Source of the DNA: Vescimonas coprocola
GTDB lineage: Bacteria > Bacillota_I > Bacilli_A > RF39 > UBA660
Direction of reading: 5' to 3'
Assembly (NCBI GenBank): GCA_963660615.1
Contig: CAVKYE010000006.1
Span: 5,145 to 69,144 of the forward strand
DNA length: 64,000 bases
The notes beneath the pieces were generated by a model, which worked only from the letters and a program-made list of their open reading frames with translations, was not told the DNA's origin and made no database searches. Of this stretch, positions 7,332-62,426 are shown piece by piece (position 1 is the stretch's first letter; each line of letters begins with the position of its first letter). The position numbers and the translations under genes were made by a program.

Positions 7332-8519
7332 CTAAATTTTAAGAACCCTTCTTCTAATCACAAAAATAACAAAAATAAATAAAACAAAAAATCCCCCTAA
7401 AACATAACTAAAATTATATTTTAAAAAACTCATAAGAGAAAATGAAACCTTCTTTTTTAAAACAATATCTTGATTATAAATCTTTGTTTTATCATAATAA
7501 AGTTTCAAGTGACCAAGATTAGTTCCCACACTCATATTAGGAGTAACCACCTTAACACCATCATACTGACTATTAAGCTTACTCTTATCTACATTATTAG
7601 GTAAATAATAAGCAATATCCTTATCAGGATAAAACGAAACCGAAGATTCATTAGAATACTTAGTTTTCAAACTCAAAATCGTATCCTTTTTCGAAAAAAG
7701 AACCTGCCTAGAATAATTATTTATAAAATACTCATAAATCGTCTTCGCATCCTCAATATTATGCCTACCCTTCTTATCATAAGGTGCTCCTAAAGTAACA
7801 AGCAATAAATTACTGTCACCATCCTTCGCAATAGAAGCCAAACAAAGCCCAGCACCCGAAGTCGTTCCCGTCTTACCACCAAGCAAATAATCACCAAGGG
7901 CCGCATTATGACGAACACTACTTTTAAAAGTTAAACCACCATTAGAAGTCCTATAAGAGCTTGTCGTAATAATCTTCTTAAAAACATCATTTTTTAAAGC
8001 ATACATAAAAATAAGAGACATATCATAAGCCGTCGAATAATTCGAGTCAGAATCAAGACCAATTGGATTAGAAAAATGCGTATTTTTAAGTTTTAGTTCC
8101 GCAACCTTTTCATTCATAAGCGAAATAAACTTATCATAACCAAAAACATTATGCGAAAGTGCCAAAGCCGCATCTGCCCCAGAAGGAAGCAAAAGACCAT
8201 ATAACAAATCCAAATAAGTAACCTTATCTCCCACTTTAAAACCCGCAGCCACCAAATTATTAGAAGAAATATCCTTCAAATCATCACTAGTAATAAAAAC
8301 ACTACTATTTAAATCCTTCACATTTTCTAAAGTAATAATCGCCGTCATAATCTTCGTCAAAGAAGCCACCGAAGCTTTCGAATAAGCATCTTTTTCATAC
8401 AAAATATTATTATCATCAGTATTAACAAGTATCGCATTTTTAGACTGAATATCAAGTTCAAGTCCATGTACCGAAATAAAAGAAAATAATAAAACAATAA
8501 TCAAAAATACCTTTTTCAT
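7332..8519 (-). CDS. D-alanyl-D-alanine carboxypeptidase (S11 family, low-MW PBP)
   Basis: Signal peptide MKKVFLIIVLLFSFISVHG, SxxK (SLTKIM), KTG (GGKTGTT), and a C-terminal TM anchor. Start taken at the ATG at 8519 behind AGGTGAGGA. Confidence 0.85.
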   Translation of the reverse strand: MKKVFLIIVLLFSFISVHGLELDIQSKNAILVNTDDNNILYEKDAYSKASVASLTKIMTAIITLENVKDLNSSVFITSDDLKDISSNNLVAAGFKVGDKVTYLDLLYGLLLPSGADAALALSHNVFGYDKFISLMNEKVAELKLKNTHFSNPIGLDSDSNYSTAYDMSLIFMYALKNDVFKKIITTSSYRTSNGGLTFKSSVRHNAALGDYLLGGKTGTTSGAGLCLASIAKDGDSNLLLVTLGAPYDKKGRHNIEDAKTIYEYFINNYSRQVLFSKKDTILSLKTKYSNESSVSFYPDKDIAYYLPNNVDKSKLNSQYDGVKVVTPNMSVGTNLGHLKLYYDKTKIYNQDIVLKKKVSFSLMSFLKYNFSYVLGGFFVLFIFVIFVIRRRVLKI

Positions 8520-8606
8520 ATCCTCACCTATCTTTAAGTATAACATGAATAAACAAAATAAAAGAAAAAAATAAAAAAAGAGTGTAAAGAAAAAGCAAGA
8601 ATAATC

Positions 8607-11420
8607 TCACTTTAAATAAGGTTTTAAAAACTTACCCGTATAACTATTTTCTTCTAAAACAACATCCTCAGGTGTTCCAGCACAAACAACGCATCCCCCA
8701 CCGTCACCACCTTCAGGTCCCAAATCAATAATATGATCCGCTACTTTAATAACATCGAGATTATGTTCAATAACAATAACCGTATCACCATTATCAACAA
8801 TCCTATTTAAAATAGTTAAAAGTTTTTTAATATCATCACTATGAAGACCAGTAGTCGGTTCATCCAAAATAAACAAACTTCTGCCCGTAGGTTTCTTCTG
8901 AAGTTCCTTCGCAAGCTTAACTCTAGCCGCCTCACCACCAGAAAGCGTTGGCGCGCTTTGCCCAAGTTTAATATAAGATAAACCAACATCCATCAAAACC
9001 TGAAGCTTGTTTTTAACCTTAGGAACATTCTCAAAAAACTTTAAAGCCTCATAAACCGTCATATTAAGAACATCATAAATATTCTTACCCTTATACTTTA
9101 TTTGCAAAGTCTCCGTATTATAACGCGTTCCATGACAAACCTCACAAGGCACATAAACATCAGGAAGAAAATGCATCTCAATCTTCTTAACACCATCACC
9201 CTGACAAGCCTCACATCTGCCCCCCTTAACATTAAAAGAAAACCTTCCCTTATCATATCCACGCATCTTCGCCTCACGTGTCTGCGTAAACACATCACGA
9301 ATATCATCAAAAACCGAAGTATAAGTAGCCGGATTACTACGAGGCGTCCTACCAATAGGAGACTGCGAAATATCGATAACCTTATCAATATTCTCAAGAC
9401 CCTTAATACTCTTAAAACGTCCAGGTTTCATCTTACTATGATATAAATTATTAGAAACCGTCTTATATAAAATCTCATTAACAAGCGTACTCTTACCACT
9501 ACCAGAAACGCCCGTCACACAAATAAACTTACCAAGAGGAAACTTAACATTAATATTTTTTAAATTATTCTCGCAAGCCCCCTTAATTTCCAAATACTTT
9601 TTATTACCTTTTCTTCTTTTCAAGGGAACCAAAATCTTCTCCTTACCACTTAAATACTTGCCAGTCAAACTATTAGGATTAGCCATAACCTCCAAAGGAG
9701 TACCAAAAGCCACGACCTCTCCTCCATTAACACCAGCCCTAGGACCAATATCAACCAAATAATCCGCCGAAAGCATTGTATCAGTATCATGTTCAACCAC
9801 AATAAGTGTATTACCTAAATCACGCATTTCTTTAAGTGAATCAATAAGCCTTTGATTATCCCTTTGATGAAGACCAATAGATGGCTCATCCAAAACATAC
9901 AAAACACCCGTAAGCCTAGAACCAATCTGCGTAGCTAGTCTAATCCTCTGTGCCTCACCGCCAGACAAAGTTCCAGCCTCCCTCGAAAGCGTCAAATACT
10001 CAAGCCCAACATTAATCAAAAACAAAAGTCTAGACTTAATCTCCTTAATAATAAGCTCCGCAATCTTAGCCTCCTCATTATTCAAAGACAAATTATTAAA
10101 AAACTCATTAATATCTTTAATACTCTTCTTCGTAAGTTCATAAATATTAATACCACCAACTAAAACCGATAAAACCGAAGAATTTAACCTAGCCCCCTTA
10201 CAACTAGGACACTCAAGCTCCGTCATATAATTTTCAATCCACTCACGAATCCAAGTACTCTTAGTTTCCATATATCTGCGTTCTAAATTATTAATAATAC
10301 CTTCATAAAAACCCTTACTAGTTCTTTTATTTCCACTTTTAGAAACATAATTAAAAGTAAGAACTTCAGAAGAACCATACAAAACAATATCAAGTTCTTT
10401 CTTAGATAAATCCTTAATAGGCAAGGACATATCAATACCAAAATGATTACAAGCCGTAGCTAAATTAGTAAACATAATATTACTATCATCACTACTATTA
10501 ATAACCACAATTGCCCCTTCATTAATACTCAAATCCTTATTTGGAATAACCAAATCAACATCAATCTTATATTTAATTCCAAGACCTTTACAACTAGGGC
10601 AAGCACCATAAGGTGCATTAAACGAAAACATCCTAGGCTCCAAATCAGGAAGCGAAAAATCACACTTAGGACAAGCATAAGTCTCACTAAGAAGTAACTT
10701 CTCACCACCAATAACATCAATTAAAACCTTACCACCACCAAGCTGGCAAGCAAGTTCCACCCCCTCATAAAGTCTGCTTCTAATAGAAGATTTTATAATT
10801 AACCTATCAATAACAACCTCAATCGTATGCTTCTTATTTTTTTCCAAATTAATATCACTAGATAAATCATAATCCTCACCATCAATACAAACCCTAGCAT
10901 AACCATCCTTGCGCAAATTATCCAAAGTATCCTTGTGAGTTCCCTTAGCCAAACTAACAACCGGACTTAAAATTCTTATCTTAGTTCCCAAATCAAGTGC
11001 CATAACATCATTAACCATCTCTTCAATACTTTGAGAAGAAATAGGAATATGATGACAAGGACAATAAGGAACACCAATACGTGCATACAAAAGCCTCAAA
11101 TAATCATAAATTTCCGTAACCGTACCAACCGTACTCCTTGGATTTTTATGAGTCGTCTTCTGATCAATACTAATAGCCGGGCTAAGTCCCTCAATACTAT
11201 CAACCATGGGCTTCTCAGAACCACCCAAAAACTGTCTCGCATAAGCACTTAAACTCTCAACATATCTTCTTTGACCTTCCGCATAAATAGTATCAAAAGC
11301 CAAACTACTCTTACCACTACCAGAAACCCCAGTCATCACAATAAGCTTATTTTTGGGTAACGTTATATCTACATTTTTTAAGTTGTTTTCCCTCGCACCC
11401 TTCACAATAATCTCGTCCAT
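8607..11420 (-). CDS. uvrA: Excinuclease ABC subunit A
   Basis: Two ABC modules ([12 protein letters not shown] and [11 protein letters not shown]), LSGGE signatures and CxxC zinc modules. N-terminus [16 protein letters not shown]. Confidence 0.95.
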
Positions 11421-11945: not shown

Positions 11946-12296
11946 CTAATCTTTCGGTTTAAAAATAAGCGACATAAAGAAAGAAAATATAATAGTCGCA
12001 CAAATACCAGCCGAAGTTAAATCAAACGCCCCAACAAAAAGTCCCATAAATCCCATATCATTAAGTCCCTGTATAGAACCATGAGTAAGCATATGCCCAA
12101 AACTAGTAATAGGCACCAAAGCCCCACCACCAGCCCATAAAACAAACCTATCATAAATATCAAAAATATCCAAAAAAGCCCCAAAGACGACAAATATACA
12201 AGTAACATGACCAGGCGTTAGCTTAGTATTATCCAAAATAAGCTGCGCTAACAAGCAAATTATACCAGCCGTTATAAAAGCATGAAAATAAATCAT
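11946..12296 (-). CDS. spoVAE: Stage V sporulation protein AE (SpoVAEb type)
   Basis: 116-aa polytopic membrane protein, last gene of a spoVAC-spoVAD-spoVAE operon with 1 to 4 nt overlaps. Confidence 0.85.
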   Translation of the reverse strand: MIYFHAFITAGIICLLAQLILDNTKLTPGHVTCIFVVFGAFLDIFDIYDRFVLWAGGGALVPITSFGHMLTHGSIQGLNDMGFMGLFVGAFDLTSAGICATIIFSFFMSLIFKPKD

Positions 12297-13282
12297 TTAA
12301 CCGCCTCCAAACTAATCGCATGCGCTATAGAAGGAATTGTAAGCTTTTGATTCGCAAGCGTCTGACTCATAAGCGCCCCAGTAGCCACTACCAAAACTTT
12401 TTTAAGCCTTCCCTTACGCATTTCATCAAAAATATATCCATAAGTAACCAAAGGCGCACAAGCAGGACCACTAGCCCCCGCATAAACAGGCTGACTATTC
12501 AAATTATAAAGCATACATCCCGTATCATCATAATTATTTAAAACAATACCATACTCTGCCTTCATATACTTCCTCAAAATTTCCTTACCATAAATTCCTA
12601 AATCACCAGTCAAAATCAAATCATAATAATTAACGTCCCTACCAGTATCCTTTAAATGATTATAAATCGTCATAGCCGCCGCAGGAGCCATCACTGCCCC
12701 CATATTAAACACATCATTAATAGTAGAATCAATAACCTTCCCCAAAGTCGCCGAATCAACCCTTATTAAAGAAGACTCCAAAGAAAGCAAAGCACAAGCA
12801 GCCCCCGTCGACGTAAAAGTTGTCGTCTTAGGTTTAGGACCCCCATACTCAACCGGATAACGAAACTGTTTTTCTGCTCCATTATTATGAGAAGAAACCC
12901 CACAAAGCACATTTTTCAAACTACCACTAGAAACCATATTAGCCCCCAAAGCAAGTCCCAAAGTACTAGTCGCACAAGCCGCATAAACACCAGCAAACCC
13001 ACAAGGCATATCACTAGCCGCATAATTAGAAGCCGTTATTTGATTAAGTAAATCACCCGAAATAAACAAATCAATCATATTTCTAGATAAAGAAACTTTA
13101 TCTAAAGCAATATTAATAGCATCCGAAATCATCTTACTTTCAGCCTGCTCCCAAGTCTTACACCCAAAATACAAATCATCATAAGACTTATCAAAATATT
13201 TACCCAAAGGACCCTTACCTTCATAAGGACCAGTCACCGTCGATACCGCATTTATATAAACACCATCATATTTAAAAGTCAT
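12293..13282 (-). CDS. spoVAD: Stage V sporulation protein AD
   Basis: 329 aa, thiolase-like SpoVAD sequence (GPYEGKGPLG, AGVYAACATS). Operon context supports the call. Confidence 0.9.
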   Translation of the reverse strand: MTFKYDGVYINAVSTVTGPYEGKGPLGKYFDKSYDDLYFGCKTWEQAESKMISDAINIALDKVSLSRNMIDLFISGDLLNQITASNYAASDMPCGFAGVYAACATSTLGLALGANMVSSGSLKNVLCGVSSHNNGAEKQFRYPVEYGGPKPKTTTFTSTGAACALLSLESSLIRVDSATLGKVIDSTINDVFNMGAVMAPAAAMTIYNHLKDTGRDVNYYDLILTGDLGIYGKEILRKYMKAEYGIVLNNYDDTGCMLYNLNSQPVYAGASGPACAPLVTYGYIFDEMRKGRLKKVLVVATGALMSQTLANQKLTIPSIAHAISLEAVK

Positions 13283-23235: not shown

Positions 23236-24900
23236 TTACATCATTTTTGGAATAGATATTCCAAGAATTCCAAGTAAAGTTTTAATAACCTTATTATTAA
23301 AAGTCAAAACCGTTTCAAATTCTTCTTTCTTATCCCCACTTACTTCACTTAACTTATTTGCGTGATAAAAATTATTAGCAATCACACATAACTCATACAA
23401 ATAATTAGCCAAGTGATGAGGTTTTCTTTCAGCAGAAGAAATATCTATTACATTACTCACTTCAAGTAATTTAAGTCTTAAATTTCTATCAGATAATCCA
23501 TAAATTTTTGATAACTTAGTATATTTGCCTTCCAACAACTTATTTATACGTAAATAAGTATACAAAATATAAGGACCAGTCTTACCATTTACCTCACTAA
23601 ACTTTGAAACATCAAAAATATAATTTCTTTCCAAATCATTTTGCAAATCAGCAAATTTTATAATAGCATTTACAATCTTATCCAAATCTTCTTTATCCAT
23701 CATTTTATTTTCTTCTCTTAAAGAAACAAACTCATCTTGAACATTCTTTATCAAATCCTCTAATTTCAAAGCACCACCAGTACGAGTTTTAAAAGGTTTA
23801 CCATCCTTCCCATTCATAGTTCCAAAACCATAATGTTCCAAATTCCCTTCGTACATATGGCTTTTTTTAGTCGCCCTAAATATTTGCGTAAAATGCATAC
23901 TCTGCCTAGCATCAACAACATAAATAATTAAATCAGGGTTATAGTCCTTTGCCCTTTGCCAAATAGTACCAAGATCTGATGTTGCATATAAATAAGCACC
24001 ATTACTTTTTTGAATCAAACAAGGTGGAATAACAACCTTATCACCATCTTCTTTAACATCAATAACTAAAGCACCATCATCCTCTTTAAGAATATTTTTT
24101 TCATTGAAATACTCAATCATTTCATCAAACACTTTAAAAGAATCACTTTCACCATACCACAAATCAAAATGAACGTCCAAATAATCATAAATCCTTTTAA
24201 TATCCTTAACTGATATCTCACAAATTTTTTTCCATAACACACGGTAATCAGGGTCACCCTCTTGAAGTTTTTTAGTAATTAAAGCACATTTTTCCTTAAT
24301 TTCATCATTTTCTTTACATAAAGCACTCATACGCGGATAAGTTTTATTTAAATAATCCAAATCAAAATTTATATCCTCATATGAAACCCCAGGAAAATCT
24401 TCCAATATTCCATATATAACCTGTCCCATTTGAGTTCCAATATCACCCAAATGAACATCACCAATCACCTTATTACCCTTAAATTTTAAAAGATTATAAA
24501 TAGCCTGTCCAATAATAGCTGGACGCAAATGTCCTACATGAAGTGGTTTTGCTACATTAGGTCCACCATAATCAACAACAATAACCTTATTTTCCTTAGT
24601 ACTACCTAATATATCTTTATCCATAAGTTCATTTAACTTAGTATTAATATAAACATCACTAACATTTATATTAATAAAACCAGGATTTGCCAAAGTTACC
24701 TCTTTAAAATAATCACTGTAATCATTTTGATTAATCTTATCAATAAATTCCTCACCTATCATCATTGGTGATTTTGAATATACCTTAGCAAGTTTAAACA
24801 AATCATCACATTGAAAATCAAAACCCTTATTAGATTTAATTATTTTAACATTAATATCATATCCCAATTCCTTAAAAATCCCATTAAATATATTTTCCAT
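23236..24900 (-). CDS. argS: Arginine--tRNA ligase
   Basis: HIGH-type motif PLHVGHLR and an ArgRS-like C-terminal anticodon-binding region. True start is MENIFNG at 24900 behind AGGAGG. The ORF-track extension runs into the T-box leader. Confidence 0.9.
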   Translation of the reverse strand: MENIFNGIFKELGYDINVKIIKSNKGFDFQCDDLFKLAKVYSKSPMMIGEEFIDKINQNDYSDYFKEVTLANPGFININVSDVYINTKLNELMDKDILGSTKENKVIVVDYGGPNVAKPLHVGHLRPAIIGQAIYNLLKFKGNKVIGDVHLGDIGTQMGQVIYGILEDFPGVSYEDINFDLDYLNKTYPRMSALCKENDEIKEKCALITKKLQEGDPDYRVLWKKICEISVKDIKRIYDYLDVHFDLWYGESDSFKVFDEMIEYFNEKNILKEDDGALVIDVKEDGDKVVIPPCLIQKSNGAYLYATSDLGTIWQRAKDYNPDLIIYVVDARQSMHFTQIFRATKKSHMYEGNLEHYGFGTMNGKDGKPFKTRTGGALKLEDLIKNVQDEFVSLREENKMMDKEDLDKIVNAIIKFADLQNDLERNYIFDVSKFSEVNGKTGPYILYTYLRINKLLEGKYTKLSKIYGLSDRNLRLKLLEVSNVIDISSAERKPHHLANYLYELCVIANNFYHANKLSEVSGDKKEEFETVLTFNNKVIKTLLGILGISIPKMM

Positions 24901-24904
24901 ATTT

Positions 24905-25118
24905 ATCCTCCTAAATTCGAAAAAAATCCTATAAAATAAGGACGAGTTAACCCGCGGTACCACCTTACTTCATAGAATTATCTATGCCACTTAAATCTTT
25001 AATGCAGATATACAAACAGCTCCAAAGTACGTTCATAAAATATTACCAACCTAGTTTCCACTATCCTAGACTCACTTTTAATAATTTAGATTACTACTAC
25101 TCTTTTTCTTCGCCTTAA
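24905..25118 (-). promoter_or_regulatory. T-box leader (tRNA-Arg responsive) of argS
   Basis: The minus strand contains AAGGTGGTACCGCGGG (T-box core, plus 24953-24964). It also has a stem I start GGCGAAGAAAAAGAGTAGTA, a candidate specifier GAA-CGT-A (CGU = Arg, plus 25029-25031) and a T7 run before the RBS. A TTGACT-17-TATAAT promoter lies at 25124-25152. Confidence 0.8.
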
Positions 25119-25192
25119 GTAAAATTATAGTTAATAGTTTCACAAAAGTCAACAAAATTGTCACAAAAAATAAAAAAATAGATATAATGTAA

Positions 25193-25239: not shown

Positions 25240-25313
25240 GGGTCTATAGCCAAGTGGTAAGGCGTGGGACTGCAACTCCCTGATCGTTGGTTCAAATCCG
25301 ACTAGGCCCTCCA
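25240..25313 (+). tRNA. tRNA-Cys (GCA)
   Basis: 74 nt. Acceptor stem GGGTCTA/TAGGCCC, anticodon loop CTGCAAC, T-arm GTTGG-TTCAAAT-CCGAC, encoded CCA. Confidence 0.9.
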
Positions 25314-29050: not shown

Positions 29051-30793
29051 TTAATTTGAGTTAACTTCTTTAACAATACCAAATACAGTATTAAGTTTTT
29101 CCTCAAACATTCTAATTTGCTCTGCTTGTTCAGCATTTAACATCTCAAGTTCAGAAATTTTATTATTTTGATTATCAATTACCCTTTGTAAATCATTATT
29201 TTTATTTATCAACTCTGAAATTTCAGATTCACGTTCCCTAATAGTTTGAGTTAAATTATCATTCAACCTTGACGTTTGAATTTTTTCTACCCTATCAACC
29301 TCAGCCTGTTTGAAAGAAGCATCGTAAACCTTATTTAATTCTTTAACATTCCTATCATACTCTGCAGATATCTCATTAAGTTTTTTAGTAAAATCCTTTC
29401 CAAGAGTAACTACCTTTTTCTTTAACTTATCACTCTCATTTGCAATCTTATTATATTGAGTTGCCCTCTTAGAATAGAAAGATCTTTCAGTAGGAAATGC
29501 CTTCATTTTCTTAAGAGATTCAAGTTCAAAAGGAGTTAATGCTTCGCGTTTAAAATGTTTTTGTCCAAAAGCAAACGTATAATCAGCATAATCCTTAAAT
29601 AAAGTTAAATTTTTCAAATCCCTGTCAGTTTCATCAATTTCTTCATCAGGAATAATATCATTAGTTTCATAAACATCATTTTTAACATTTTCAGATATGA
29701 AAGGACTAATAGCCTCATAACTTGGTAAAGAATTCACCATATCATTATGAACTCTAGTTTCAATTTCTTCTTTAGACTCTTCAATCTCAGGAATTTCACT
29801 CAACTCAACATTTTGTAAACCTTCCCAGATAGCATCAGCATCTTCCTCAGAAATTGGCTCTTCTATATTTTCAAATTCCTTTTCATCATTATCGTCTTCC
29901 TCTTCAAATGACGTAATTACCGGAGTTTCTATCTCAATAGGTGTAACCTCGTCAGCATCACTCAAAGTAGCCATTTCATTTTCCATATCACCATCGACAA
30001 CTGGATTAACATCATTATCATCAGAAATCTCTTCAAAATTATTTTCATCAAAAGTATTAGGAGCAGCATTTATAGTTTCCTCTGAATCACTAAAATCACC
30101 ATCTAATTCGGCAGATAAATCCGCACCTTCCGAAACAGCATTTCCTTTATCATCTTCATTTACAGTAGTTTCAAATTCATCATTGAACTCATTTATCATT
30201 TCAGATGAATCATCAACAGTTTCAACTGGATTAATTTCTGCAGTTTCAACTGGATTAATTTCAGTAGTTTCAATCGGATTAATTTTAGTAGTTTCAACCG
30301 GATTAATTTCAGTAGTTTCAGAATTAATCACATCGGTATTTGCTAAATCATCTTCATTCGAAAAATCATCAGAATTAACCTCTTCAGTAGTATTATCACT
30401 TTCAAATTCATCTACCAAACTATTAGAATTCATTTCTTCAACGCTTTTAATAATTATTCCTTCACTTAACGGTTTATTTTGTTTATTAGTCATTTCATCA
30501 ATTTTTGATTGAGTATTTTCTATATCTTTATTTATTTTATCAATTTCTTTTTGTAAAGGTTTCACTTGTTTAGAAGCTTCCTTAACTTCCCTTTTGTCTT
30601 CAGAAGCCATCTTTGTTTCTAATTCAGACATTTCTTTAGTCTTATCTTCTAACAAAATTTTATTTGAATTTACCTCTTGAACTAAAGTCTTAATTTCTTT
30701 ACCTCTATTATTATAATCATTTAATTCCTTGCGCATTTGTTCAGTAATTTTTACTGCTTTACTTCCGCCATATGTTATAACTAGTCCGTCCAT
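29051..30793 (-). CDS. Acidic coiled-coil protein with an internal 8-aa tandem repeat (hypothetical)
   Basis: 580 aa. Coiled-coil N- and C-terminal thirds, a very acidic centre, and repeats ETTEINPV/ETTKINPI. A terminator AAGCAACA-ttttt-GTTGCTT-T7 follows. Confidence 0.55.
   Translation of the reverse strand: MDGLVITYGGSKAVKITEQMRKELNDYNNRGKEIKTLVQEVNSNKILLEDKTKEMSELETKMASEDKREVKEASKQVKPLQKEIDKINKDIENTQSKIDEMTNKQNKPLSEGIIIKSVEEMNSNSLVDEFESDNTTEEVNSDDFSNEDDLANTDVINSETTEINPVETTKINPIETTEINPVETAEINPVETVDDSSEMINEFNDEFETTVNEDDKGNAVSEGADLSAELDGDFSDSEETINAAPNTFDENNFEEISDDNDVNPVVDGDMENEMATLSDADEVTPIEIETPVITSFEEEDDNDEKEFENIEEPISEEDADAIWEGLQNVELSEIPEIEESKEEIETRVHNDMVNSLPSYEAISPFISENVKNDVYETNDIIPDEEIDETDRDLKNLTLFKDYADYTFAFGQKHFKREALTPFELESLKKMKAFPTERSFYSKRATQYNKIANESDKLKKKVVTLGKDFTKKLNEISAEYDRNVKELNKVYDASFKQAEVDRVEKIQTSRLNDNLTQTIRERESEISELINKNNDLQRVIDNQNNKISELEMLNAEQAEQIRMFEEKLNTVFGIVKEVNSN
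30217..30325 (-). repeat. In-frame 24-bp tandem repeat, about 4.5 copies
   Basis: cagtttcaactggattaatttctg / ...ttcag / tagtttcaatcggattaattttag / tagtttcaaccggattaatttcag / partial copy. Encodes (E-T-T/A-E/K-I-N-P-V/I)n. Confidence 0.85.
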
Positions 30794-31645: not shown

Positions 31646-31846
31646 TTAATATCTTTCTCTTCTAGCATTTCTTTCTCGTCTTTGAGCATTCTTACGTCCT
31701 TGCTCTTTAGCAAGTCTATTTTTTACGCCTTTTTTTAAATATCCTTGTTGACGTTCTTTTAGTTTACGACGGGAGCCATCTTTATCTACTTTTAAACTTC
31801 TAAGTGCACCTTCAACATTGCCATTACGTACTACTACTTTTGTCAT
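31646..31846 (-). CDS. rpsU: 30S ribosomal protein S21
   Basis: 66-aa basic protein, MTKVVVRNGNVEGALRSLK... with an Arg/Lys-rich tail. TTGAAA-17-TGcTATAAT promoter upstream. Confidence 0.85.
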   Translation of the reverse strand: MTKVVVRNGNVEGALRSLKVDKDGSRRKLKERQQGYLKKGVKNRLAKEQGRKNAQRRERNARRERY

Positions 31847-31916
31847 AAAAATCCCTCCCTTCTTGAACTATGCTTATTATAGCACCCTTTTTTTTATTTT
31901 TCAACCGAAAATACAG

Positions 31917-31944
31917 AAAAAAAACGAGATTTCCTCGCTTTTTT
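31917..31944 (-). terminator. Rho-independent terminator closing the exporter/peptide operon
   Basis: Minus strand: AAAAAGCGAG-gaaat-CTCGTTTTTTTT, right after the double stop TAATAA of peptide 2. Confidence 0.65.
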
Positions 31945-31945
31945 A

Positions 31946-32107
31946 TTAAAGTGGACATAATTTACCAGATGTAATTCGGCGAATAGCACTACCAATAGCC
32001 TTACCAAAATCAAGAAAAGTATCAATGCTTCTTGAAATAGCATTAACCATAGTTGTAGTAAGCCCTCCACCTCTTATTTTCAATAGTTCCTCTTTACTTA
32101 ACAGCAT
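31946..32107 (-). CDS. Double-glycine-leader peptide 2 (53 aa), bacteriocin-like. Not in the ORF track.
   Basis: Hand translation: MLLSKEELLKIRGG|GLTTTMVNAISRSIDTFLDFGKAIGSAIRRITSGKLCPL. Leader matches LSxxELxxIxGG, with a GxxxG motif (GKAIG). The ATG lies 11 nt before the stop of peptide 1. Confidence 0.6.
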   Translation of the reverse strand: MLLSKEELLKIRGGGLTTTMVNAISRSIDTFLDFGKAIGSAIRRITSGKLCPL

Positions 32108-32240
32108 TACTACACTTAATCGGATTTACATATCCATCAATTATGCCCGCAATAAAAGTTACAATAGCACCAATACCAGCTACCAAACTTATATTTATTC
32201 CCCCACCTTTTATTTCTAACAACTCTTCTTTACTTAACAT
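32094..32240 (-). CDS. Double-glycine-leader peptide 1 (48 aa), bacteriocin-like. Not in the ORF track.
   Basis: Hand translation: MLSKEELLEIKGG|GINISLVAGIGAIVTFIAGIIDGYVNPIKCSNAVK. Strong RBS AGGAGG. The ATG overlaps the exporter stop (ATGTTAA). GxxxG motif (GIIDG). Confidence 0.65.
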   Translation of the reverse strand: MLSKEELLEIKGGGINISLVAGIGAIVTFIAGIIDGYVNPIKCSNAVK

Positions 32241-34258
32241 ATTTCCTCCTTTTTAACAATTCTTCCATTATCAAACACTATATGACTATCAAACAAATCT
32301 TTATTTTCTAATCTATGAGATATGAATATCACAGTTTTGTTTTCACAATATTTCAAAAGACTTTTTAAAATACCCCTTTCAGACGCTATATCCAAAGCAC
32401 TCAAAGCCTCATCAATTATTAAAATATCAAAATCCTGTAAAGCCCTAGCCAAAGCAATCTTTTGCCTTTGACCATATGATAAGTTTAAACCATTTTCCTC
32501 AATTAAAGCATTATAGTTCAAAACACCCTCATCAATCCATGAAGTTTGACATATTTTTTTTACTTGTTTTAAATTTTTGTTTCCCTTTATTTTTAAATTA
32601 TAATTGACAGTTCCAGTGAATAAACTCTCATTTAAAGAAACATAATTTATCCTTAAATTCATACCCCTAATATCAACATTATCTACATATATTCCTCCTT
32701 TATAACCATCATAATATCCTTTTAACAACTTCATCAAAGTACTTTTTCCGCTACCACTTTTTCCCGTTATAAACACCTTTTCATTTTGCTTTATCTCTAA
32801 ATTTACATTGTCCAAAACATTTTTAACATCATCAAAACTATAACTTACATTTTTAAAAACAATATCACCATGTTTATATCCTCCCTTCTTTTTACTAAAA
32901 GAAACACTTATCAATTCCAAAACTTTTCTTATTGTAATAGAACTTTCCTTTAAAGTAGCATCCAAATCAATTATATTTCTTAAAGGATTCAAATATAATG
33001 ATATCAACAATATATATGTTATTAACGCCTCTACAGAAATAAAACCATAACGTACCAACATAACACCAACCATAAATATCAAAATATTTCCAATCATACT
33101 TATAAAATTCTTAAAAAAAGTTTGTCCATTTATCTTTTTGACCAAAATTAAAGCGTTCTTCATATACTGATTATTTGCCTCTATAATTTGATTAATCATC
33201 TTATCTTCAATATTTAAACCCTTTATAGTCTCAAACCCTCTAATACTTTCTTCAAGCTTAGAGGCAAGCAAAATCTTTGACTCCAAAGAAGCATCAAGAC
33301 ACCTTTTCAAAGGCTTATTATAAACCAAAATGATTATCACATAAAATATTACAATAACCTGAACAATAAGAAAAAGCGTTTTATTCAAAAGAAATAAAAT
33401 AATTCCCGTTATCAAAGATAAAGGAAAATCTATAAGTACAGTTAAAAGGACCTTACTAACCATTTCTTTAACAATCTTCAAATCGTCAACCTTACTTAAA
33501 ATTTCACCGGAAGTATGGTTATGGTAGTAATTGTAAGGAAGTAAAATTATCTTTTTAACACTATCCAAAGTAATACTAGCTTCTATCTTAAAAGAAAGAA
33601 AAAGCGCCATTTTACCTCTTATATAATCAAAAATAATACTTATAAAATAACTAAACGCGAAAATAAAACACAAAAATATCTCTTTATACTTATTAGTTTT
33701 TAAATTTTCCAAAAGACTCTGGAAGAAAAAAGAACTAAAAATCGTCGACAAAGTTATAACACACGATAAAACAAATAATTTTAATATAATTTTTTTATGG
33801 GGTTTTATTATATTTTTTAAAACTTTTAGGGAGACCTTTTCATACCTTGGAATCTGTTTTACCGGATGCATAACAATCTTTATATTTGTCCATATTTTCA
33901 AAAACTCCTGCCTATCTTGCTTTTTAATTCCACAAGCTGGATCAGCCACTAAGACATACCTTTCAGTAACTTCATAAACAACTAGAAAATGATTGTAGGA
34001 GTTTATTTGAACGTTTGCTATAAAAGGCACACGTGTATTTTCTAATTGCTTTACTCTAAAACCCTTAGCCTCAAATCCAATCTGTTTTAAAGCCTCTATA
34101 ATATGATAAGCCGTAGTTCCATTTTTAGTTGTTTTAAGCATCTCACTTATTTTTTCCAAAGGAATATAGCCCTTATAATACTTTATTATCATACTCAAAG
34201 AAGCCGCACCACAGTCTTTTAAATTTTCTTGTCTCGTAAAAGGATAACGTTTAAGCAT
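32234..34258 (-). CDS. Peptidase C39 domain-containing ABC transporter (double-glycine peptide exporter/maturation protease)
   Basis: The N-terminal C39 catalytic set is present: QENLKDCGAASL (Gln/Cys), NHFLVV (His), ADP (Asp). Six-TM domain. Walker A GKSGSGKST, signature LSYGQRQ, Walker B LIIDEALS. Confidence 0.9.
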   Translation of the reverse strand: MLKRYPFTRQENLKDCGAASLSMIIKYYKGYIPLEKISEMLKTTKNGTTAYHIIEALKQIGFEAKGFRVKQLENTRVPFIANVQINSYNHFLVVYEVTERYVLVADPACGIKKQDRQEFLKIWTNIKIVMHPVKQIPRYEKVSLKVLKNIIKPHKKIILKLFVLSCVITLSTIFSSFFFQSLLENLKTNKYKEIFLCFIFAFSYFISIIFDYIRGKMALFLSFKIEASITLDSVKKIILLPYNYYHNHTSGEILSKVDDLKIVKEMVSKVLLTVLIDFPLSLITGIILFLLNKTLFLIVQVIVIFYVIIILVYNKPLKRCLDASLESKILLASKLEESIRGFETIKGLNIEDKMINQIIEANNQYMKNALILVKKINGQTFFKNFISMIGNILIFMVGVMLVRYGFISVEALITYILLISLYLNPLRNIIDLDATLKESSITIRKVLELISVSFSKKKGGYKHGDIVFKNVSYSFDDVKNVLDNVNLEIKQNEKVFITGKSGSGKSTLMKLLKGYYDGYKGGIYVDNVDIRGMNLRINYVSLNESLFTGTVNYNLKIKGNKNLKQVKKICQTSWIDEGVLNYNALIEENGLNLSYGQRQKIALARALQDFDILIIDEALSALDIASERGILKSLLKYCENKTVIFISHRLENKDLFDSHIVFDNGRIVKKEEIC

Positions 34259-34325: not shown

Positions 34326-34847
34326 TCATTTTTTAAAGATTTTTATAAATTTATTTCCATAACGTTTCTCTTTTACAAGTTCATAAATAGTCTCAGGCTC
34401 CTCACCTTCATATTCACAAACAATTATACCACCATCATTTAAAATATCAATCTCCTCAATTTTTTTAATCGCCTTATTAAGCACCTTCGCCTTATAAGGC
34501 GGATCCAAAAAAATTATATCAAACCTAGAAACAGTTTCCTTCAAATACCTTTTATAATCCATATTAATAATCGTAATATTCTCTTTAACATTTTCCACAT
34601 TTCTATTTAAAACTCTTATTACCTTTGGATTATTATCTACAAAAGTACACGCCTTAGCCCCCATAGATAAAGCCTCAAGCCCTAAAGAACCACTACCAGC
34701 AAATAAATCCAAACACTCACTTCCTTCTATCCTATTTTGAATAATTGCAAAAACAGATTCCCTAACCCTATCCATAGTTGGCCTCGTCCCGTCAATATCA
34801 AATCCCTCTAATTTCTTTCCTTTATATTTTCCGCTTATAATCCTCAT
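34326..34847 (-). CDS. rsmD: 16S rRNA (guanine966-N2)-methyltransferase RsmD
   Basis: MRIISGKYKGKKL...RPTMDRVRESVF...LDLFAGSGSLGLEALS...DPPY. Start taken at 34847. Confidence 0.85.
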   Translation of the reverse strand: MRIISGKYKGKKLEGFDIDGTRPTMDRVRESVFAIIQNRIEGSECLDLFAGSGSLGLEALSMGAKACTFVDNNPKVIRVLNRNVENVKENITIINMDYKRYLKETVSRFDIIFLDPPYKAKVLNKAIKKIEEIDILNDGGIIVCEYEGEEPETIYELVKEKRYGNKFIKIFKK

Positions 34848-34888: not shown

Positions 34889-35110
34889 TTATTTCAAAGT
34901 ATTTATAATCTTTTCCGCCATTTCAATAGCATTCAAAGCTTTCTCTAATTTATCTATGCCCCTAAGATTATAATCCTCCTTAGCTTTTTTAATAAAAGAA
35001 TTTAAATTATTTGGATTACGATTTAAATACTTATACCAATACGAATTTTCCCTTAAATACCTTAGATAGTCTTCATTTTCCTTTATCTTAAATTGTAACT
35101 CAATACTCAT
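34889..35110 (-). CDS. ylbE: YlbE-like small protein
   Basis: 73 aa. LRYLRENSYWYKYLNRNP resembles B. subtilis YlbE (LKQFLREQPIWYRKLSRNP, from memory). ylbD-ylbE-...-rsmD synteny. Confidence 0.55.
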   Translation of the reverse strand: MSIELQFKIKENEDYLRYLRENSYWYKYLNRNPNNLNSFIKKAKEDYNLRGIDKLEKALNAIEMAEKIINTLK

Positions 35111-35454
35111 TAATCATCAAAATGCTTATATAAAGGCCTTGGCCTTTTTAAAGAAGATACTTCTGGCTTAATAGACATATCCTGAAGAAGTCCCAAAACC
35201 CGTTGAAGACTATTTACACCTTCCTGAATACTATCTAAGTCTAACCCCTTTAAAAAACTCACAAAATCAAAAGAAGAACCAGCATCCACCTTAACAGAAT
35301 CCGCTTTCAAATAATCCTTCCACGCCGTATCATCATCACCATATAAATCATATATTTCAAAAAACTGTTGCCATGTTCCTTTCCCTTCCTTAACCCTTTT
35401 CAAAAGAATAGGATTTTTTCTCACAAAATCTTTAAAATTTTCCTTCGTATTCAT
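35110..35454 (-). CDS. ylbD: YlbD-like protein
   Basis: FKDFVRKNPILLKRVKEGKGTWQQFFEIYDLYGDDD resembles YlbD (FKEFVKKHPKMIKEVRNGNKTWQELYEDWYLLGEED, from memory). Confidence 0.55.
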   Translation of the reverse strand: MNTKENFKDFVRKNPILLKRVKEGKGTWQQFFEIYDLYGDDDTAWKDYLKADSVKVDAGSSFDFVSFLKGLDLDSIQEGVNSLQRVLGLLQDMSIKPEVSSLKRPRPLYKHFDD

Positions 35455-44750: not shown

Positions 44751-46934
44751 CTAGTTATCACTAATTTCATCATACTTCTCAGAAAGTTTAATTTTAACAG
44801 TTGCCCCAGATACATCACTACCAGCAGAAACGCTCTGTTCACTAACATATCCATAGCCTTCAAGTTCATACTTATATCCCAAAGCCTTCATAAGATATAT
44901 AACCTCAGACCTAGAATATCCCTTCAAATCAGGCATTTTATTCTCACCACCATTAGTAATTAAAAATACTTTATCATACGAAAGAACCGTTTCACCTTTC
45001 TCTGGATACTGACTAATGACCTTATCACCATCACCTATAATAACCGGAACAACACCATTTGAAGTAAGCTCATCACGCACACTAGCAATATCCTTATTAA
45101 CATACGAAGAAAGTTTAAGCGATTTAATATTACTACTATTACTAGTCGTTGTAAACATGTTCTTATACTTAGCAATATTCTTCATCAAACTATTAACCGC
45201 ATCACTAACAACAACCGTAGCGCCAACATTAGGCTTTTTAACTGCTGCATAAATAATTATCTCTGGATCATCCTTAGGATACATACCCGCAAAAGAATAA
45301 ACATATGCATTATCGCCTTTCAAATAGCCACCCTTAGAAGAAGCAATTTGAGCCGTACCAGTTTTACCAATAACATCAAAGCCCTCAATCATATATCTTT
45401 TACCAGTAGCCGAAGGATCATCACTATTAACAACATTATACATAAGTTCTTTTATTTTATTTACCGTATTTTGACTAACAATCCTCTCACTACTTTCAAC
45501 TTTTCTTTTATAAGTAGTCTTACCAGTATTTGGATTAACAATCTTCTTAACAATATGTGGCGTAAGCGCTTTACCATTATTAGAAATAATTGTAAGAGCC
45601 TTAAGATGCTGAATAACCGTCGTATTTATACCTTGACCAAACGCCGCATTAGCCACCTCAACAGGATACTTAAAACCTAAAGTACCACTAGTCTCTCTAG
45701 CTAAATCAACGCCCGTAGTCTTACCAAAACCATACTTATTATAACAATCCTTCAAATCATTCTTATCAATAAATTTGCCAATCATACTACTAACACCAAC
45801 ATTGCTAGAATACTCAAAACCTTTATCAAAAGTAATTGTACCCCATCCAGTATTATTCCAATCCTTAATAGTTGCATCCGCAATTACAATATTACCAGAT
45901 TTAAAAGTATCACTGCCATTATAAGTGCCCTTTTCCATCGCACACATATAAGTAAATATTTTCATCGTACTACCAGGCTCAAACGCATTAGAAACAAGCA
46001 AATTCTCATAATTCTTAATATCTCTTGTGTTAGGATTAAAAGAAGGCGTAGAAGCCGACGCTAAAATATCACCAGTCTTCGCATCCATAACCGATATTAT
46101 AGCCCACTCAGGATCATACTTTTCACTAATACCCTTAACCTCAGTTTCCGTAAACCTTTGAATACTAGAGTCTAACGTCAAATAAATATCCTTACCATCA
46201 ATCGCATCAATCTTAGTCTCCGCCGTATCAGGAATCTTATACCCAAGCCTATCTTGTTGATACTGCTGATACCCATCAGTACCTTTAAGCAAATCATCAA
46301 ATTTAGCCTCAATACCAAGTTCACCATCAATCGATGTAGTTACCTTACCATCAGAAGAAACCTTTTCATTAGTCTTCGCATATCCCAAAATATAAGAAGC
46401 AAAATCACCATTAGGATAATATCTTTTATAATTTTCCGTAAAATCAATACCAGGTAAATCAAGATTTTCAATCTCCGACTTTTTAAGTTCCGTAATATTC
46501 TTACCAGCCGTTCCAAGTTCAACTTGATATTTAGACTCTTCCCTTCCTTTAGTAAGCCTAGATTTAATATCCGCTTCATCCGCACCTAAAACATTCGCAA
46601 GTTTCTTAGCCGTATCATCAATATCCTTAACATAATCTATCTTACTACCAGTTTTACGACTCTTATCCAAATAAGCCACCAAAGTATAAGATGTAACATT
46701 ATGAGCCAAAACATCACCAACACTATCATAAATAGTTCCCCTTTTAGCCGTCAAAACCCTAGAAACCGTATTACGATTAGAAGCAAACTTTTGAATATCG
46801 TGTCCATTTACAGATGGTGACAAAGCCAAATAACAATACCTGCCAAACAAAATAAGAATACAAAGAAAAAAAGCAAAAAAAACCTTTCGCGGAAATTTCC
46901 AACCACTATTTTTCTGCCCTTTTCCTTTCATCAT
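44751..46934 (-). CDS. Class B penicillin-binding protein with C-terminal PASTA domains (PBP2B/SpoVD type)
   Basis: Transpeptidase motifs STMK-like (GSTMKIF), SSN, and KTG (GKTGTA). Two PASTA repeats at the C-terminus. dcw position after ftsL. The start codon is one of the ATGs at 46931-46934. Confidence 0.9.
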   Translation of the reverse strand: MMKGKGQKNSGWKFPRKVFFAFFLCILILFGRYCYLALSPSVNGHDIQKFASNRNTVSRVLTAKRGTIYDSVGDVLAHNVTSYTLVAYLDKSRKTGSKIDYVKDIDDTAKKLANVLGADEADIKSRLTKGREESKYQVELGTAGKNITELKKSEIENLDLPGIDFTENYKRYYPNGDFASYILGYAKTNEKVSSDGKVTTSIDGELGIEAKFDDLLKGTDGYQQYQQDRLGYKIPDTAETKIDAIDGKDIYLTLDSSIQRFTETEVKGISEKYDPEWAIISVMDAKTGDILASASTPSFNPNTRDIKNYENLLVSNAFEPGSTMKIFTYMCAMEKGTYNGSDTFKSGNIVIADATIKDWNNTGWGTITFDKGFEYSSNVGVSSMIGKFIDKNDLKDCYNKYGFGKTTGVDLARETSGTLGFKYPVEVANAAFGQGINTTVIQHLKALTIISNNGKALTPHIVKKIVNPNTGKTTYKRKVESSERIVSQNTVNKIKELMYNVVNSDDPSATGKRYMIEGFDVIGKTGTAQIASSKGGYLKGDNAYVYSFAGMYPKDDPEIIIYAAVKKPNVGATVVVSDAVNSLMKNIAKYKNMFTTTSNSSNIKSLKLSSYVNKDIASVRDELTSNGVVPVIIGDGDKVISQYPEKGETVLSYDKVFLITNGGENKMPDLKGYSRSEVIYLMKALGYKYELEGYGYVSEQSVSAGSDVSGATVKIKLSEKYDEISDN

Positions 46935-46941
46935 AAACACC

Positions 46942-47238
46942 TCATTCATCAACAACTATAATATTATCATTATTATAAGCAAGACCCATCTCACCAACAA
47001 CACTCTTAACATTCTCAAAAGAAGTAAGTTCACTAACCTTCATTGACAAACTCTCATTAGTCTTCTTTTGCTCTTCAATTTTTCCCTTAGTCTCCTCAAT
47101 ACTCATCTTCATCTCACTAATAGAAGCCCCACAAAAAGTCTTAATGCCTAAAGAAAACACAAAAGCAAACACAATCATCATATAAAGAATTCGCTCACCT
47201 CTAGTAATTCCACCCTTTTTTACTCTTTTTTTCGCCAT
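46942..47238 (-). CDS. ftsL: Cell division protein FtsL
   Basis: About 98 aa, a basic N-terminus, one TM, then a coiled coil. Lies between rsmH and the PBP gene. Confidence 0.7.
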   Translation of the reverse strand: MAKKRVKKGGITRGERILYMMIVFAFVFSLGIKTFCGASISEMKMSIEETKGKIEEQKKTNESLSMKVSELTSFENVKSVVGEMGLAYNNDNIIVVDE

Positions 47239-57983: not shown

Positions 57984-58057
<74 letters not shown>

Positions 58058-58728: not shown

Positions 58729-60839
<2,111 letters not shown>

Positions 60840-60962: not shown

Positions 60963-61014
60963 CTAAGGTGTTAAACCTTAGCCCACTGGTATCTTGTTAG
61001 TATGACAAGATACC
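60963..61014 (+). promoter_or_regulatory. Candidate oriT: two hairpins just upstream of the relaxase gene
   Basis: CTAAGG-tgttaaa-CCTTAG (60963-60981) and a perfect 10-bp inverted repeat GGTATCTTGT-tagtatg-ACAAGATACC (60988-61014). Confidence 0.4.
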
Positions 61015-61070
61015 TAGGGGGTTATATATTATGTCAAAACAAAATATACCTAAAAAAGGATGGTGATAAA

Positions 61071-62426
61071 ATGGAAGAACTTTCTTACTCTTTCCATATT
61101 GGAAGTGATAAAAACAAGAAAAATAGTGTAAGGTTAACATCAAAAAATAATGTTAGTGGAACTAATTCTATGAGTAATAATGCTATTCAGAATGCTAAAC
61201 AATTATCAACAGCTGATAAACATAATTATAGAAAATATGATAATAGACAAGATGAAATTGTAGTTATTAAAGGAACTACTTCACTATATAACGATGTACA
61301 GCACTTTTATAAAAATGAATTTGAAGAAGCAAGATTAGAATATAACAATAAGCAAACAAGAGATGACAGAAAAATAGATGATTATTTCAAAAAAATTAGT
61401 AATAATTCAAAAAGTGATTTAGCAGTACAAATAATAATTGAACTTGGAAATAAAAAATTCTGGGATACTAAATCAATGACATATAAGCATAAAATGACCA
61501 ATGTTTTTATAAAACAAGTTGATGATTTAGAACTATTACTTCCAAATTTTAAAATCTGTAGTGCTATTATTCATTATGATGAAACTTCTCCACACCTTCA
61601 TATAGTTGGTGTACCTATAAAATATAATTGTAAAACTGGTATGTCTATTCAAGTTGGTAAAACTGACGTTTTTACGAGAAATTCACTAAAAGAGCTGCAA
61701 GATAAAATGAGAATTTTATGTATTGAAGAATATAATAAAGAGTACGATTTAGATGCTACTCTAAAGAAAAAATTAAAAGGTAGAAATAAAGATATTCATG
61801 TATCTGATATGATTAATTATCAAGACACTAAAGATTTGATTGAAAAAAATCAAAAGAATCTTGAAATCATTAATAACAATTCTATTGAACTTGATAAAGA
61901 CACAATCAATATAAAAGATAAAATATTAAATCTAAAAAAAGCTTCTTTAAAAAAAGATACTTACCTCCTATCAAACGAAGATAAAAAAATATTAGAAAAT
62001 TATATTGATAAAATTGATAAAACTAATAACGAATATAAAAAAATAAATGGTCTTTCTTCTTCACTTAATAGTTTAAATCAAACCATAAAAGAAGATAAAA
62101 AAGCAATTAAGGTACTTACCGAAAATAATAAAGCACTAGAATTACGGGTTAAGAATCTCACTTTTAAAACAGAAAATCAGGAAGAATTAATTAGTAATTT
62201 AAAGCAAGATAATTTTAATCTTAAATACAGATTACAACAATTAGAAGAATTCTTTAAGAAGTTAGTAAATTTATTTAAGAGAATGATTAAAAAAGATAGC
62301 AAAAAAGAATCTTATTTAGACGTATTAGAAGATATGCACAACAATAGAATTATCAGTGATAATACCATAGACGACATTTTAAACAATAAAAATAATATAA
62401 AAGAAAAAGACGATTTCGAATTATGA
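61071..62426 (+). CDS. mob: MobV-family (Pre/Mob) relaxase
   Basis: DKHNYRKY matches MobM FKHNER (motif I). HYDETSPHLHIVGVP matches HLDESTPHMHMGVVP (motif III). Long C-terminal coiled coil. Start is MEELSYSF at 61071 behind GGATGGTGA. Confidence 0.8.
   Translation: MEELSYSFHIGSDKNKKNSVRLTSKNNVSGTNSMSNNAIQNAKQLSTADKHNYRKYDNRQDEIVVIKGTTSLYNDVQHFYKNEFEEARLEYNNKQTRDDRKIDDYFKKISNNSKSDLAVQIIIELGNKKFWDTKSMTYKHKMTNVFIKQVDDLELLLPNFKICSAIIHYDETSPHLHIVGVPIKYNCKTGMSIQVGKTDVFTRNSLKELQDKMRILCIEEYNKEYDLDATLKKKLKGRNKDIHVSDMINYQDTKDLIEKNQKNLEIINNNSIELDKDTINIKDKILNLKKASLKKDTYLLSNEDKKILENYIDKIDKTNNEYKKINGLSSSLNSLNQTIKEDKKAIKVLTENNKALELRVKNLTFKTENQEELISNLKQDNFNLKYRLQQLEEFFKKLVNLFKRMIKKDSKKESYLDVLEDMHNNRIISDNTIDDILNNKNNIKEKDDFEL

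Follow-up and report, generated by a model that had tools for sequence, protein, structure and literature searches.

In the 64-kb stretch of Vescimonas coprocola DNA analysed here (the window, 30.6% G+C), the minus strand contains a gene for a predicted ATP-binding cassette (ABC) transporter that carries a peptidase (PCAT, peptidase-containing ABC transporter), followed by two overlapping open reading frames (ORFs) of 48 and 53 amino acids (aa), here called pepA and pepB and encoding peptides A and B. An earlier note on this DNA had described the two frames as double-glycine (GG) leader peptides of a bacteriocin-like or signalling locus. The question raised by the locus is whether the frames are genes and, if so, what purpose the exported pair has. 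Comparison with relatives indicates that both are genuine genes under selection. The operon formed by the exporter, A and B may encode a class IIb-like antagonistic two-peptide membrane agent, a reading to which about an even chance is given; the steps up to export appear well supported and antagonism as the purpose is uncertain.

Three overlapping genes and their conservation

The order of the locus on the minus strand, 5' to 3', is exporter, peptide A, peptide B, a stem-loop with a T-run, a promoter match and the ribosomal protein S21 gene (rpsU). The standard bacterial code applies, since TGA is read as a stop in the window. The elements are the following:

34423..34450, minus strand: candidate operon promoter, TTGATA-16-TATAAT with extended TG, in the 3' part of rsmD, from a consensus scan
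32234..34258, minus strand: PCAT exporter gene, 674 aa
32245..32250, minus strand: Shine-Dalgarno (SD) sequence AGGAGG of peptide A, in the 3' end of the exporter gene, four nucleotides (nt) upstream of the ATG
32094..32240, minus strand: pepA, ORF of the peptide A precursor, 48 aa
32240..32202, minus strand: predicted pepA leader MLSKEELLEIKGG, 13 aa
32201..32097, minus strand: predicted mature peptide A GINISLVAGIGAIVTFIAGIIDGYVNPIKCSNAVK, 35 aa, hydrophobic
31946..32107, minus strand: pepB, ORF of the peptide B precursor, 53 aa
32107..32066, minus strand: predicted pepB leader MLLSKEELLKIRGG, 14 aa
32065..31949, minus strand: predicted mature peptide B GLTTTMVNAISRSIDTFLDFGKAIGSAIRRITSGKLCPL, 39 aa, cationic and amphipathic
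31918..31944, minus strand: intrinsic terminator at the operon end, 12-pair stem and T-run, two nt past the pepB stop
31904..31876, minus strand: rpsU promoter-like site, 11/12 positions matching, a separate promoter after the terminator
31846..31646, minus strand: rpsU, ribosomal protein S21 gene, about 100 nt past the pepB stop

The coordinates, translations, overlaps and other sequence statements of the earlier note all hold on re-reading, including nested, coupled genes and a terminator directly after them (31944..31918, with a 12-bp stem). The pepA ATG is located within ATGTTAA, shared with the last codon and stop of the exporter gene (a 7-nt overlap, 32234-32240), and the pepB ATG lies 11 nt ahead of the pepA TAA, giving a 14-nt overlap; pepB has no recognisable SD. 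Terminator-like sites in the region number 4 versus 0.8 expected, and promoter-like sites 17 versus 16.8 by shuffle. The site at 34423..34450 might, at low confidence, be the operon promoter; read-through from the ylbD-ylbE-rsmD genes is equally possible, since there is no terminator-like site between rsmD and the exporter.

A strict GG-leader scan of both strands of the whole 64-kb window (pattern: an M-initiated leader of at most 25 aa ending in [ED][LIVM]..[LIVMF].G[GAS]) identified pepA and pepB as the sole matches, and these matches exceed chance. In a scan of one genome per species, about 35 exporter orthologues were identified, 29-47% identical; their sources are uncultured 'Bacilli', 'Tenericutes' and 'Mollicutes' metagenome-assembled genomes (MAGs). 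Nearly all of them are followed downstream by an A-type and then a B-type GG-leader ORF, the pair being intact in about 30 species-level MAGs; one locus (L030) may be without A and is the sole such case. Frame conservation in relatives had been set beforehand as a test. More than 60 loci preserve both reading frames, free of the frameshifts or stops that had been named as telling against them.

Selection was estimated by comparing the window with two close relatives having the matching three-gene layout (L063 and L064). For mature A plus B, window versus L064, pS was 0.60, pN 0.035 and omega (dN/dS) about 0.03; versus L063, pN/pS was 0.12 for pepA and 0.15 for pepB; over the comparisons, dN/dS of the mature regions was about 0.03-0.1. 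Leaders evolve faster than mature regions, with a leader pN of 0.17 in the L063 and L064 comparisons, and conservation of mature part versus leader was 0.69 versus 0.52 in A and 0.61 versus 0.53 in B. That the two ORFs are chance open frames or decaying remnants without product can be given practically no weight. They are short, pepB has no SD and the gene caller missed it in some assemblies (L001, L064), but this reading is refuted by the comparative data: intact frames across the loci, more than 1,500 clusters per family, omega of 0.03-0.15, invariant mature residues, and the position of pepA and pepB as the only leader-motif ORFs in 64 kb.

The plus-strand ORF at 32025-32219, called antisense noise in the earlier note, is noise, since in the closest relative (L063) its ATG is lost and an in-frame stop is gained. 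The length of the stop-free run was discarded as a test of this ORF, being uninformative where AT-rich coding DNA keeps antisense frames open.

The description of the two genes as unannotated is true of the ORF track, which lists ORFs of at least 60 aa, and fails for public records, where both have been called and pepA homologues are already named. Logan contigs carry the identical exporter, as does a MAG contig of 47.7 kb (GCA_963652445.1); public gene callers called the 48-aa ORF on those contigs and the 53-aa ORF on 2 of the 3 contigs shown. At 90% identity, profile searches place at least 1,534 clusters in the A family and at least 1,805 in that of B, which has 439 clusters when the identity level is 50%. 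This very large and unstudied family comes from metagenomes of gut, digesters and sediment, the organisms being uncultured low-GC Bacillota, and a literature search on RF39/Tenericutes bacteriocins, Mbov_0121/MAG1140 and disulfide-linked two-peptide bacteriocins found no description of the peptide family. Proteins in public gene calls that look like A-B fusions of about 101 aa or like extended forms (P0003, P0010 and P0017, of about 101-104 aa, P0132 and P0146) were rejected as artefacts because W occurs exactly at the peptide A stop, as if TGA were read as Trp (code 4); MAG gene-calling with genetic code 4 is their most likely source.

Exporter, leaders and mature peptides

The exporter contains three Pfam domains: Peptidase_C39 (PF03412, 1.2e-32, 112.9 bits for a cutoff of 22), ABC_membrane (PF00664, 5e-30, 105.6 bits) and ABC_tran (PF00005, 5e-21, 76.1 bits). 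The full Gln/Cys/His/Asp set claimed for its peptidase was confirmed as Q10, C16, H90 and D106, aligned with the catalytic residues of PCAT1 and invariant in 26/26 exporter orthologues. The membrane domain is of the six-helix ABC type and the ATPase motifs are intact (Walker A 499-507, LSYGQ 593, Walker B D616-E617 and H-loop H648). Full-length alignments were obtained with PCAT1 (4ry2, E=5.6e-101) and ComA (8hf7, 1e-89). The scores are under the cutoffs of two NCBIfam models, TIGR01193 (peptide cleavage/export ABC transporter, 403.1 versus 523.85 bits) and NF045998 (Mycoplasma Mbov_0121-family PCAT, 1.4e-77, 261.6 bits versus 500). The exporter is best described as a divergent PCAT member, its class being placed by domain architecture and PDB match. 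Gram-positive PCATs are able to function without an accessory protein (PMC7018657).

Both leaders present L-12, E-8, L-7, I-4, G-2 and G-1, in agreement with the GG-leader consensus that had been claimed for them. The known consensus is L(-12)xxxE(-8)L(-7)..G(-2)G(-1), with roles assigned to L-7 and L-12 (PMC6959990), and positions -4, -7 and -12 are those described for such leaders (PMC7018657). With 13 aa in A and 14 aa in B the leaders are slightly under the usual figure, GG leaders being usually quoted at 15-30 aa (PMC2850506). The leader is conserved in the 29 A and 30 B aligned orthologues, and cleavage would occur after the glycine pair (GG/G, the slash marking the site). Each leader would dock on the C39 domain of the exporter through L-12, E-8, L-7 and I-4, Cys16 and His90 would cleave past Gly-Gly, and the ABC core would expel the cargo; leader docking on C39, GG cleavage and ATP-driven transport are described in PCATs (PMC6959990, PMC7018657). 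In one relative (L034) both precursors have AG in place of GG at -2/-1, ..IKAG/A.. (8422-8562) and ..VKAG/S.. (8553-8726), a joint switch that fits a single peptidase with shifted specificity.

Family models give a different result for each peptide. Peptide A is above the cutoff of NCBIfam TIGR03949 (class IIb bacteriocin, lactobin A/cerein 7B; 25.3 versus 21.5 bits), much of the match lying over the leader and the Gly-rich N-terminus; the same model was matched at E<=0.01 by 21/29 peptide A orthologues, and NCBI and JGI have titled some homologues 'class IIb bacteriocin, lactobin A/cerein 7B family'. Peptide B is over the cutoff of no Pfam or NCBIfam family, 4/30 orthologues matching through the leader only, and among the matches listed all its homologues with a source name are 'hypothetical protein'. 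The gathering score of Pfam PF10439 Bacteriocin_IIc (27.1) is reached by neither peptide (14.8 and 12.7 bits). The machinery and peptide A are of the ordinary GG-leader/PCAT class IIb type; out of the ordinary are a peptide B family that has no name, the one invariant cysteine in each peptide and an atypical evolutionary behaviour.

The mature peptides are of similar size and differ in character. Mature A (35 aa, 3502.1 Da) has a grand average of hydropathy of 1.15 and a pI of 8.2; mature B (39 aa, 4125.8 Da) is amphipathic, with a hydrophobic moment of 1.16, a net charge of +3 and a pI of 10.05. AlphaFold2, run with deep alignments, predicts for each a short leader helix and a single long confident helix, at residues 17-38 in A and 16-46 in B. 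The invariant residues of mature A are F29, G32, D35, G36 and C43 (29 orthologues, and also 119 database sequences), and those of mature B are G35, G39, R43, R44 and C51 (30 orthologues, and also 113 database sequences). Each contains an invariant GxxxG motif (A, G32xxxG36; B, G35xxxG39). Of the A precursors, 109/120 have exactly one Cys, as do 106/120 of the B precursors, and the invariant C-terminal Cys is located five residues past the predicted helix in both. A single Cys shared by two co-exported peptides suggests an intermolecular A-B disulfide. Searches of PDB sequences with the A and B profiles identified no meaningful relatives of solved structure.

From these elements a mechanism can be proposed for the class IIb-like pair. 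The exporter, A and B would be co-transcribed, with translation coupled by the overlapping starts and stops, so that the amounts of A and B should be roughly equal. Outside the cell, mature A would be a very hydrophobic single helix and mature B a cationic amphipathic helix. The invariant GxxxG motifs would bring the two together as a helix-helix heterodimer inserted in the membrane; the single invariant C-terminal cysteines would probably tether or lock it. Membrane helix-helix pairing mediated by GxxxG is the accepted class IIb model (PMC2850506), and a GxxxG-paired membrane heterodimer is what the sequences of A and B best support. The heterodimer would perturb a target-cell membrane or membrane protein, the targets being most likely related competitors, in the manner of class IIb bacteriocins. 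The pair reading is also supported by the terminator shared by the overlapping pepA and pepB, and by the A-then-B order kept in relatives.

In an alternative reading, A and B act independently, as two one-peptide (class IId-like) bacteriocins that share one exporter. It draws on the fact that several unrelated GG peptides are commonly exported by one PCAT (PMC7018657), on the likeness of A and B, which is confined to the leader in the comparison of their profiles (hhalign 95.7%), and on the resemblance of A alone to TIGR03949. It is improbable nonetheless, as the two peptides co-occur in order, adjacent or overlapping, in nearly all loci examined (L030 being the only possible A-less one), the family sizes are similar, and an invariant GxxxG and a single Cys in each suggest a complementary pair.

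Inheritance of the operon and the purpose of the pair

The order ParE-ParC-YlbD-YlbE-RsmD, then exporter, A and B, then S21-YqeY is kept in most relatives, with housekeeping proteins about 45-70% identical to those of the window. For an estimate free of selection on the operon itself, 80 metagenome loci were fetched via the flanking YqeY gene. About 39 of these present A and B directly upstream of S21, and all those keeping RsmD upstream (12/12) have the exporter, A and B between RsmD and S21. About 13 are without the peptides, and in these the upstream neighbourhood is entirely different; one of them (L075) is on the same contig as another locus (L020), with the operon 15-20 kb away. The reading of the 13 as a presence/absence polymorphism was rejected on account of that different neighbourhood and of the L075/L020 contig, which still has the operon. 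The 12 RsmD loci with the operon and the displaced loci point to rearrangement, with no clean empty site. A mobile-element origin was also rejected, no homologue being found by tblastn of both peptides against 72,556 plasmids or by a profile scan of viral contigs. Rather than a bacteriocin island peculiar to one strain, the operon appears to be a module that a deep lineage has passed on vertically among its housekeeping genes.

Some peculiarities were observed in relatives. An unrelated gene of 193-357 aa is located between A and B in three of them (L006:8757-9338, L021:8688-9371 and L033:8749-9822), both peptides being intact, and the one in L021 is methyltransferase-like by eye. Seven records (L008, L010, L016, L017, L018, L024 and L030) are titled 'uncultured Muribaculaceae bacterium' yet contain the Bacilli-type ParC-YlbD-YlbE-RsmD...S21-YqeY synteny and the operon; these MAG records look taxonomically mislabelled.

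Two additional genes are found in many relatives and are missing from the window. The first encodes a gap protein of 126-166 aa, with a single N-terminal transmembrane (TM) helix, located between the exporter and A. The second, pepC, is a leaderless ORF of 47-59 aa that overlaps the end of B; its N-terminus is basic, it includes a TM helix and its tail follows the pattern G..(V/I)GT.IR......C. Their positions in relatives are, among others:

L008:8078-8536, gap protein
L006:8055-8495, gap protein
L013:8063-8521, gap protein
L042:8063-8521, gap protein
L008:8847-9023, pepC
L009:2825-3001, pepC
L010:8853-9032, pepC
L013:8817-8984, pepC
L042:8820-8996, pepC

Neither protein is over the cutoff of any Pfam or NCBIfam family. 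With NF045999 ('MAG1140 family protein') the gap protein gave full-length, sub-threshold matches in 10/21 members, the best at 1.7e-4. The accession of this model comes directly after NF045998, the one matched by the exporter, and a guess based on the consecutive numbers is that both describe one system. This hints at an uncharacterised PCAT accessory protein common to mollicutes and these Bacilli; no published function of the Mbov_0121 or MAG1140 mollicute families was found. A hidden Markov model of the gap protein run against the six-frame window identified nothing credible (best E=0.007, on a non-coding-looking piece). By hhalign (93%, E=3e-7) the pepC product shares homology with peptide B over the C-terminal half of the latter, and its gene occupies the place of the immunity gene in class IIb operons; its role could be that of an immunity protein or of a partner anchored in the membrane. 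A PDB profile match to AvtR (5e-5) in the gap-protein and pepC searches was set aside as probably compositional.

The gap gene and pepC are present or absent independently across lineages, and the three-gene form is common (e.g. L066, L068, L087, L097 and L134), which indicates that the invariant unit is exporter, A and B. The operon of the window appears to be a reduced form, without the gap gene and pepC.

The class IIb-like anatomy described in the earlier note is retained, and A passes TIGR03949; the setting is atypical for a bacteriocin. Since the operon looks like a vertically inherited module in a housekeeping slot, present in the window in reduced form, 'bacteriocin' stays an inferred label. 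Several observations weigh against it. Bacteriocin loci are usually accessory and fast-evolving; here the rsmD-rpsU slot is kept across genomes whose ParC, YqeY and RsmD are 47-70% identical, a clean empty site was not seen among the YqeY-anchored loci, and conservation is higher in the mature peptides than in the leaders. Peptide B fits no bacteriocin family over cutoff. A review of class IIb systems places the immunity gene without exception in the operon of the peptides (PMC2850506), and here the operon has no immunity gene and no small multi-TM/Abi gene was identified among the window ORFs scanned; the earlier note had likewise seen no immunity, accessory or two-component gene nearby, and none was found among those ORFs. 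The candidate for that role, pepC, is missing in the window and in many lineages where A and B are still under strong purifying selection. A self-directed role fits at least as well, given the lack of an immunity gene, the dispensability of pepC and the deep conservation in a fixed slot.

Such a role is considered possible, at a probability well short of even. The pair would be physiological, a lineage-wide housekeeping-like module whose peptides re-insert in the membrane of the producer or its kin, where they could form a small membrane complex, possibly a disulfide-linked heterodimer, or be the ligand of a conserved envelope protein. Envelope homeostasis, sporulation or germination and kin signalling could be its roles, and pepC could be a permanently anchored B. 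It is favoured by the deep vertical inheritance in a fixed housekeeping slot with empty sites not seen, by mature parts more conserved than leaders (omega 0.03-0.1), by the lack of an immunity gene and a dispensable pepC, and by the single Cys of most A and B precursors. Other points in its favour are the homology that links pepC with B in the C-terminal half of B, including a shared G...G..IR......C tail that pepC bears on a membrane anchor; the resemblance of the relatives' accessory protein to the mollicute MAG1140 family, whose model accession follows that of the Mbov_0121 PCAT; and a host that is apparently a walled spore-former with PrkC/PASTA signalling. On the other side, all its anatomical features are also those of class IIb bacteriocins, peptide A passes a bacteriocin family model, a linked partner receptor gene is absent, and about 13 YqeY loci have a different neighbourhood in the slot, the operon being placed elsewhere for L075/L020 only. 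To our knowledge, no GG-leader/PCAT cargo with a housekeeping role of this kind has been described in Bacillota.

A more specific version is more doubtful still, a near-core module, in a large clade of uncultured walled Bacilli, in which a Cys-Cys heterodimer acts on the own envelope or on kin, with pepC as an anchored B paralogue and a MAG1140-like link to an uncharacterised PCAT system of mollicutes. If true, the GG-leader/PCAT pathway would have a new physiological use, and no earlier two-peptide product of this kind would have been disulfide-linked.

The signalling alternative of the earlier note, taken here to mean that A and/or B are ComC/BlpC-type pheromones for quorum sensing through a two-component system, found no support, given the absence of a kinase or regulator and the greater conservation of the mature parts over the leaders; it is very unlikely. 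PCATs do export such pheromones (PMC7018657). A few orthologues present weak, sub-threshold leader matches to ComC and EntF induction-factor models, but no histidine kinase or response regulator was identified among the window ORFs scanned or beside the operon in relatives, and the mature parts, of 35-39 aa, are long and hydrophobic and vary less than the leaders. The mature part of a pheromone usually diverges into pherotypes.

If the class IIb-like reading of the operon is right, this would be an unusually conserved bacteriocin and a candidate narrow-spectrum agent shaping gut communities, produced by a minimal three-gene system (exporter, A and B) suited to heterologous expression. With peptide B a new family would be defined, and the single invariant cysteines could bring to light a class IIb variant whose peptides are covalently joined. 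If the pair is not a bacteriocin, it would point to a conserved physiological role of PCAT-exported peptides, possibly common to mollicutes. In both cases the comparative data single out precise points for testing, namely both GxxxG motifs, the RR motif, the cysteines and the masses predicted for A and B.

The host, other features and known systems

The host is a walled, probably spore-forming low-GC Bacillota, as shown by the following genes of the window:

207-1916, PASTA Ser/Thr kinase
12293-13282, SpoVAD
35110-35454, YlbD coat-like protein
44751-46955, PASTA-containing PBP2B

A wall-less mollicute host was rejected because the window encodes PBP2B, DacA, the PASTA kinase and SpoVAD. The nearest public relatives of this walled host are nonetheless labelled 'Tenericutes' or 'Mollicutes'.

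Other features are located away from the operon. The segment 57984-63836 probably represents a mobilisable element, carrying a restriction gene, that has integrated at a tRNA site, and a T-box leader precedes the arginyl-tRNA synthetase gene:

57984-58054, tRNA gene
58917-60839, large serine recombinase
61002-62426, Mob_Pre relaxase
62454-63836, minus strand, MutH/Sau3AI-like nuclease
24935-25119, minus strand, T-box leader (99.6 bits), upstream of the arginyl-tRNA synthetase gene (24963..23236)
25240-25310, tRNA gene, on the strand opposite the T-box leader

At 29051-30793 (minus strand) the window encodes a very acidic protein of 580 aa with TTEINPVE-type tandem repeats in the middle and a coiled-coil-like C-terminus. 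It has no Pfam family and adjoins DUF1292/YqeY also in the closest relatives (L001 and L063).

Three known systems can be compared with the operon. The first is the mollicute Mbov_0121/MAG1140 pair (NF045998/NF045999): the exporter matches NF045998 and the gap protein of relatives matches NF045999, although all scores are under the curated cutoffs and the window is without a MAG1140-like gene.

The second comprises PCAT1/CtA of Clostridium thermocellum and ComA/ComC of streptococci. Shared with these are the full-length alignment of the exporter, the catalytic Cys/His/Asp with the oxyanion Gln, and a substrate with the L-12/E-8/L-7/GG consensus that docks on the peptidase domain. The differences are cargoes unrelated to ComC or CtA and an exporter below the TIGR01193 cutoff; and, with respect to ComA/ComC, no ComB-like accessory protein or ComDE-like regulator is found here.

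The third is that of the class IIb bacteriocins such as lactococcin G and plantaricin EF/JK. The likeness comprises adjacent genes in one operon, GG leaders with a C39 ABC exporter dedicated to them, and two cationic, predicted helical mature peptides (35 and 39 aa) with GxxxG in each; peptide A is over the TIGR03949 cutoff, much of that match lying in the leader and the Gly-rich N-terminus. Unlike them, the operon has no immunity gene, its leaders are of 13-14 aa and its peptide B falls outside the described bacteriocin families. The system of the window, known here from sequence, is also distinguished by a single invariant C-terminal Cys per peptide, by mature parts more conserved than the leaders, and by a chromosomal, syntenic location apparently inherited vertically across a deep lineage.

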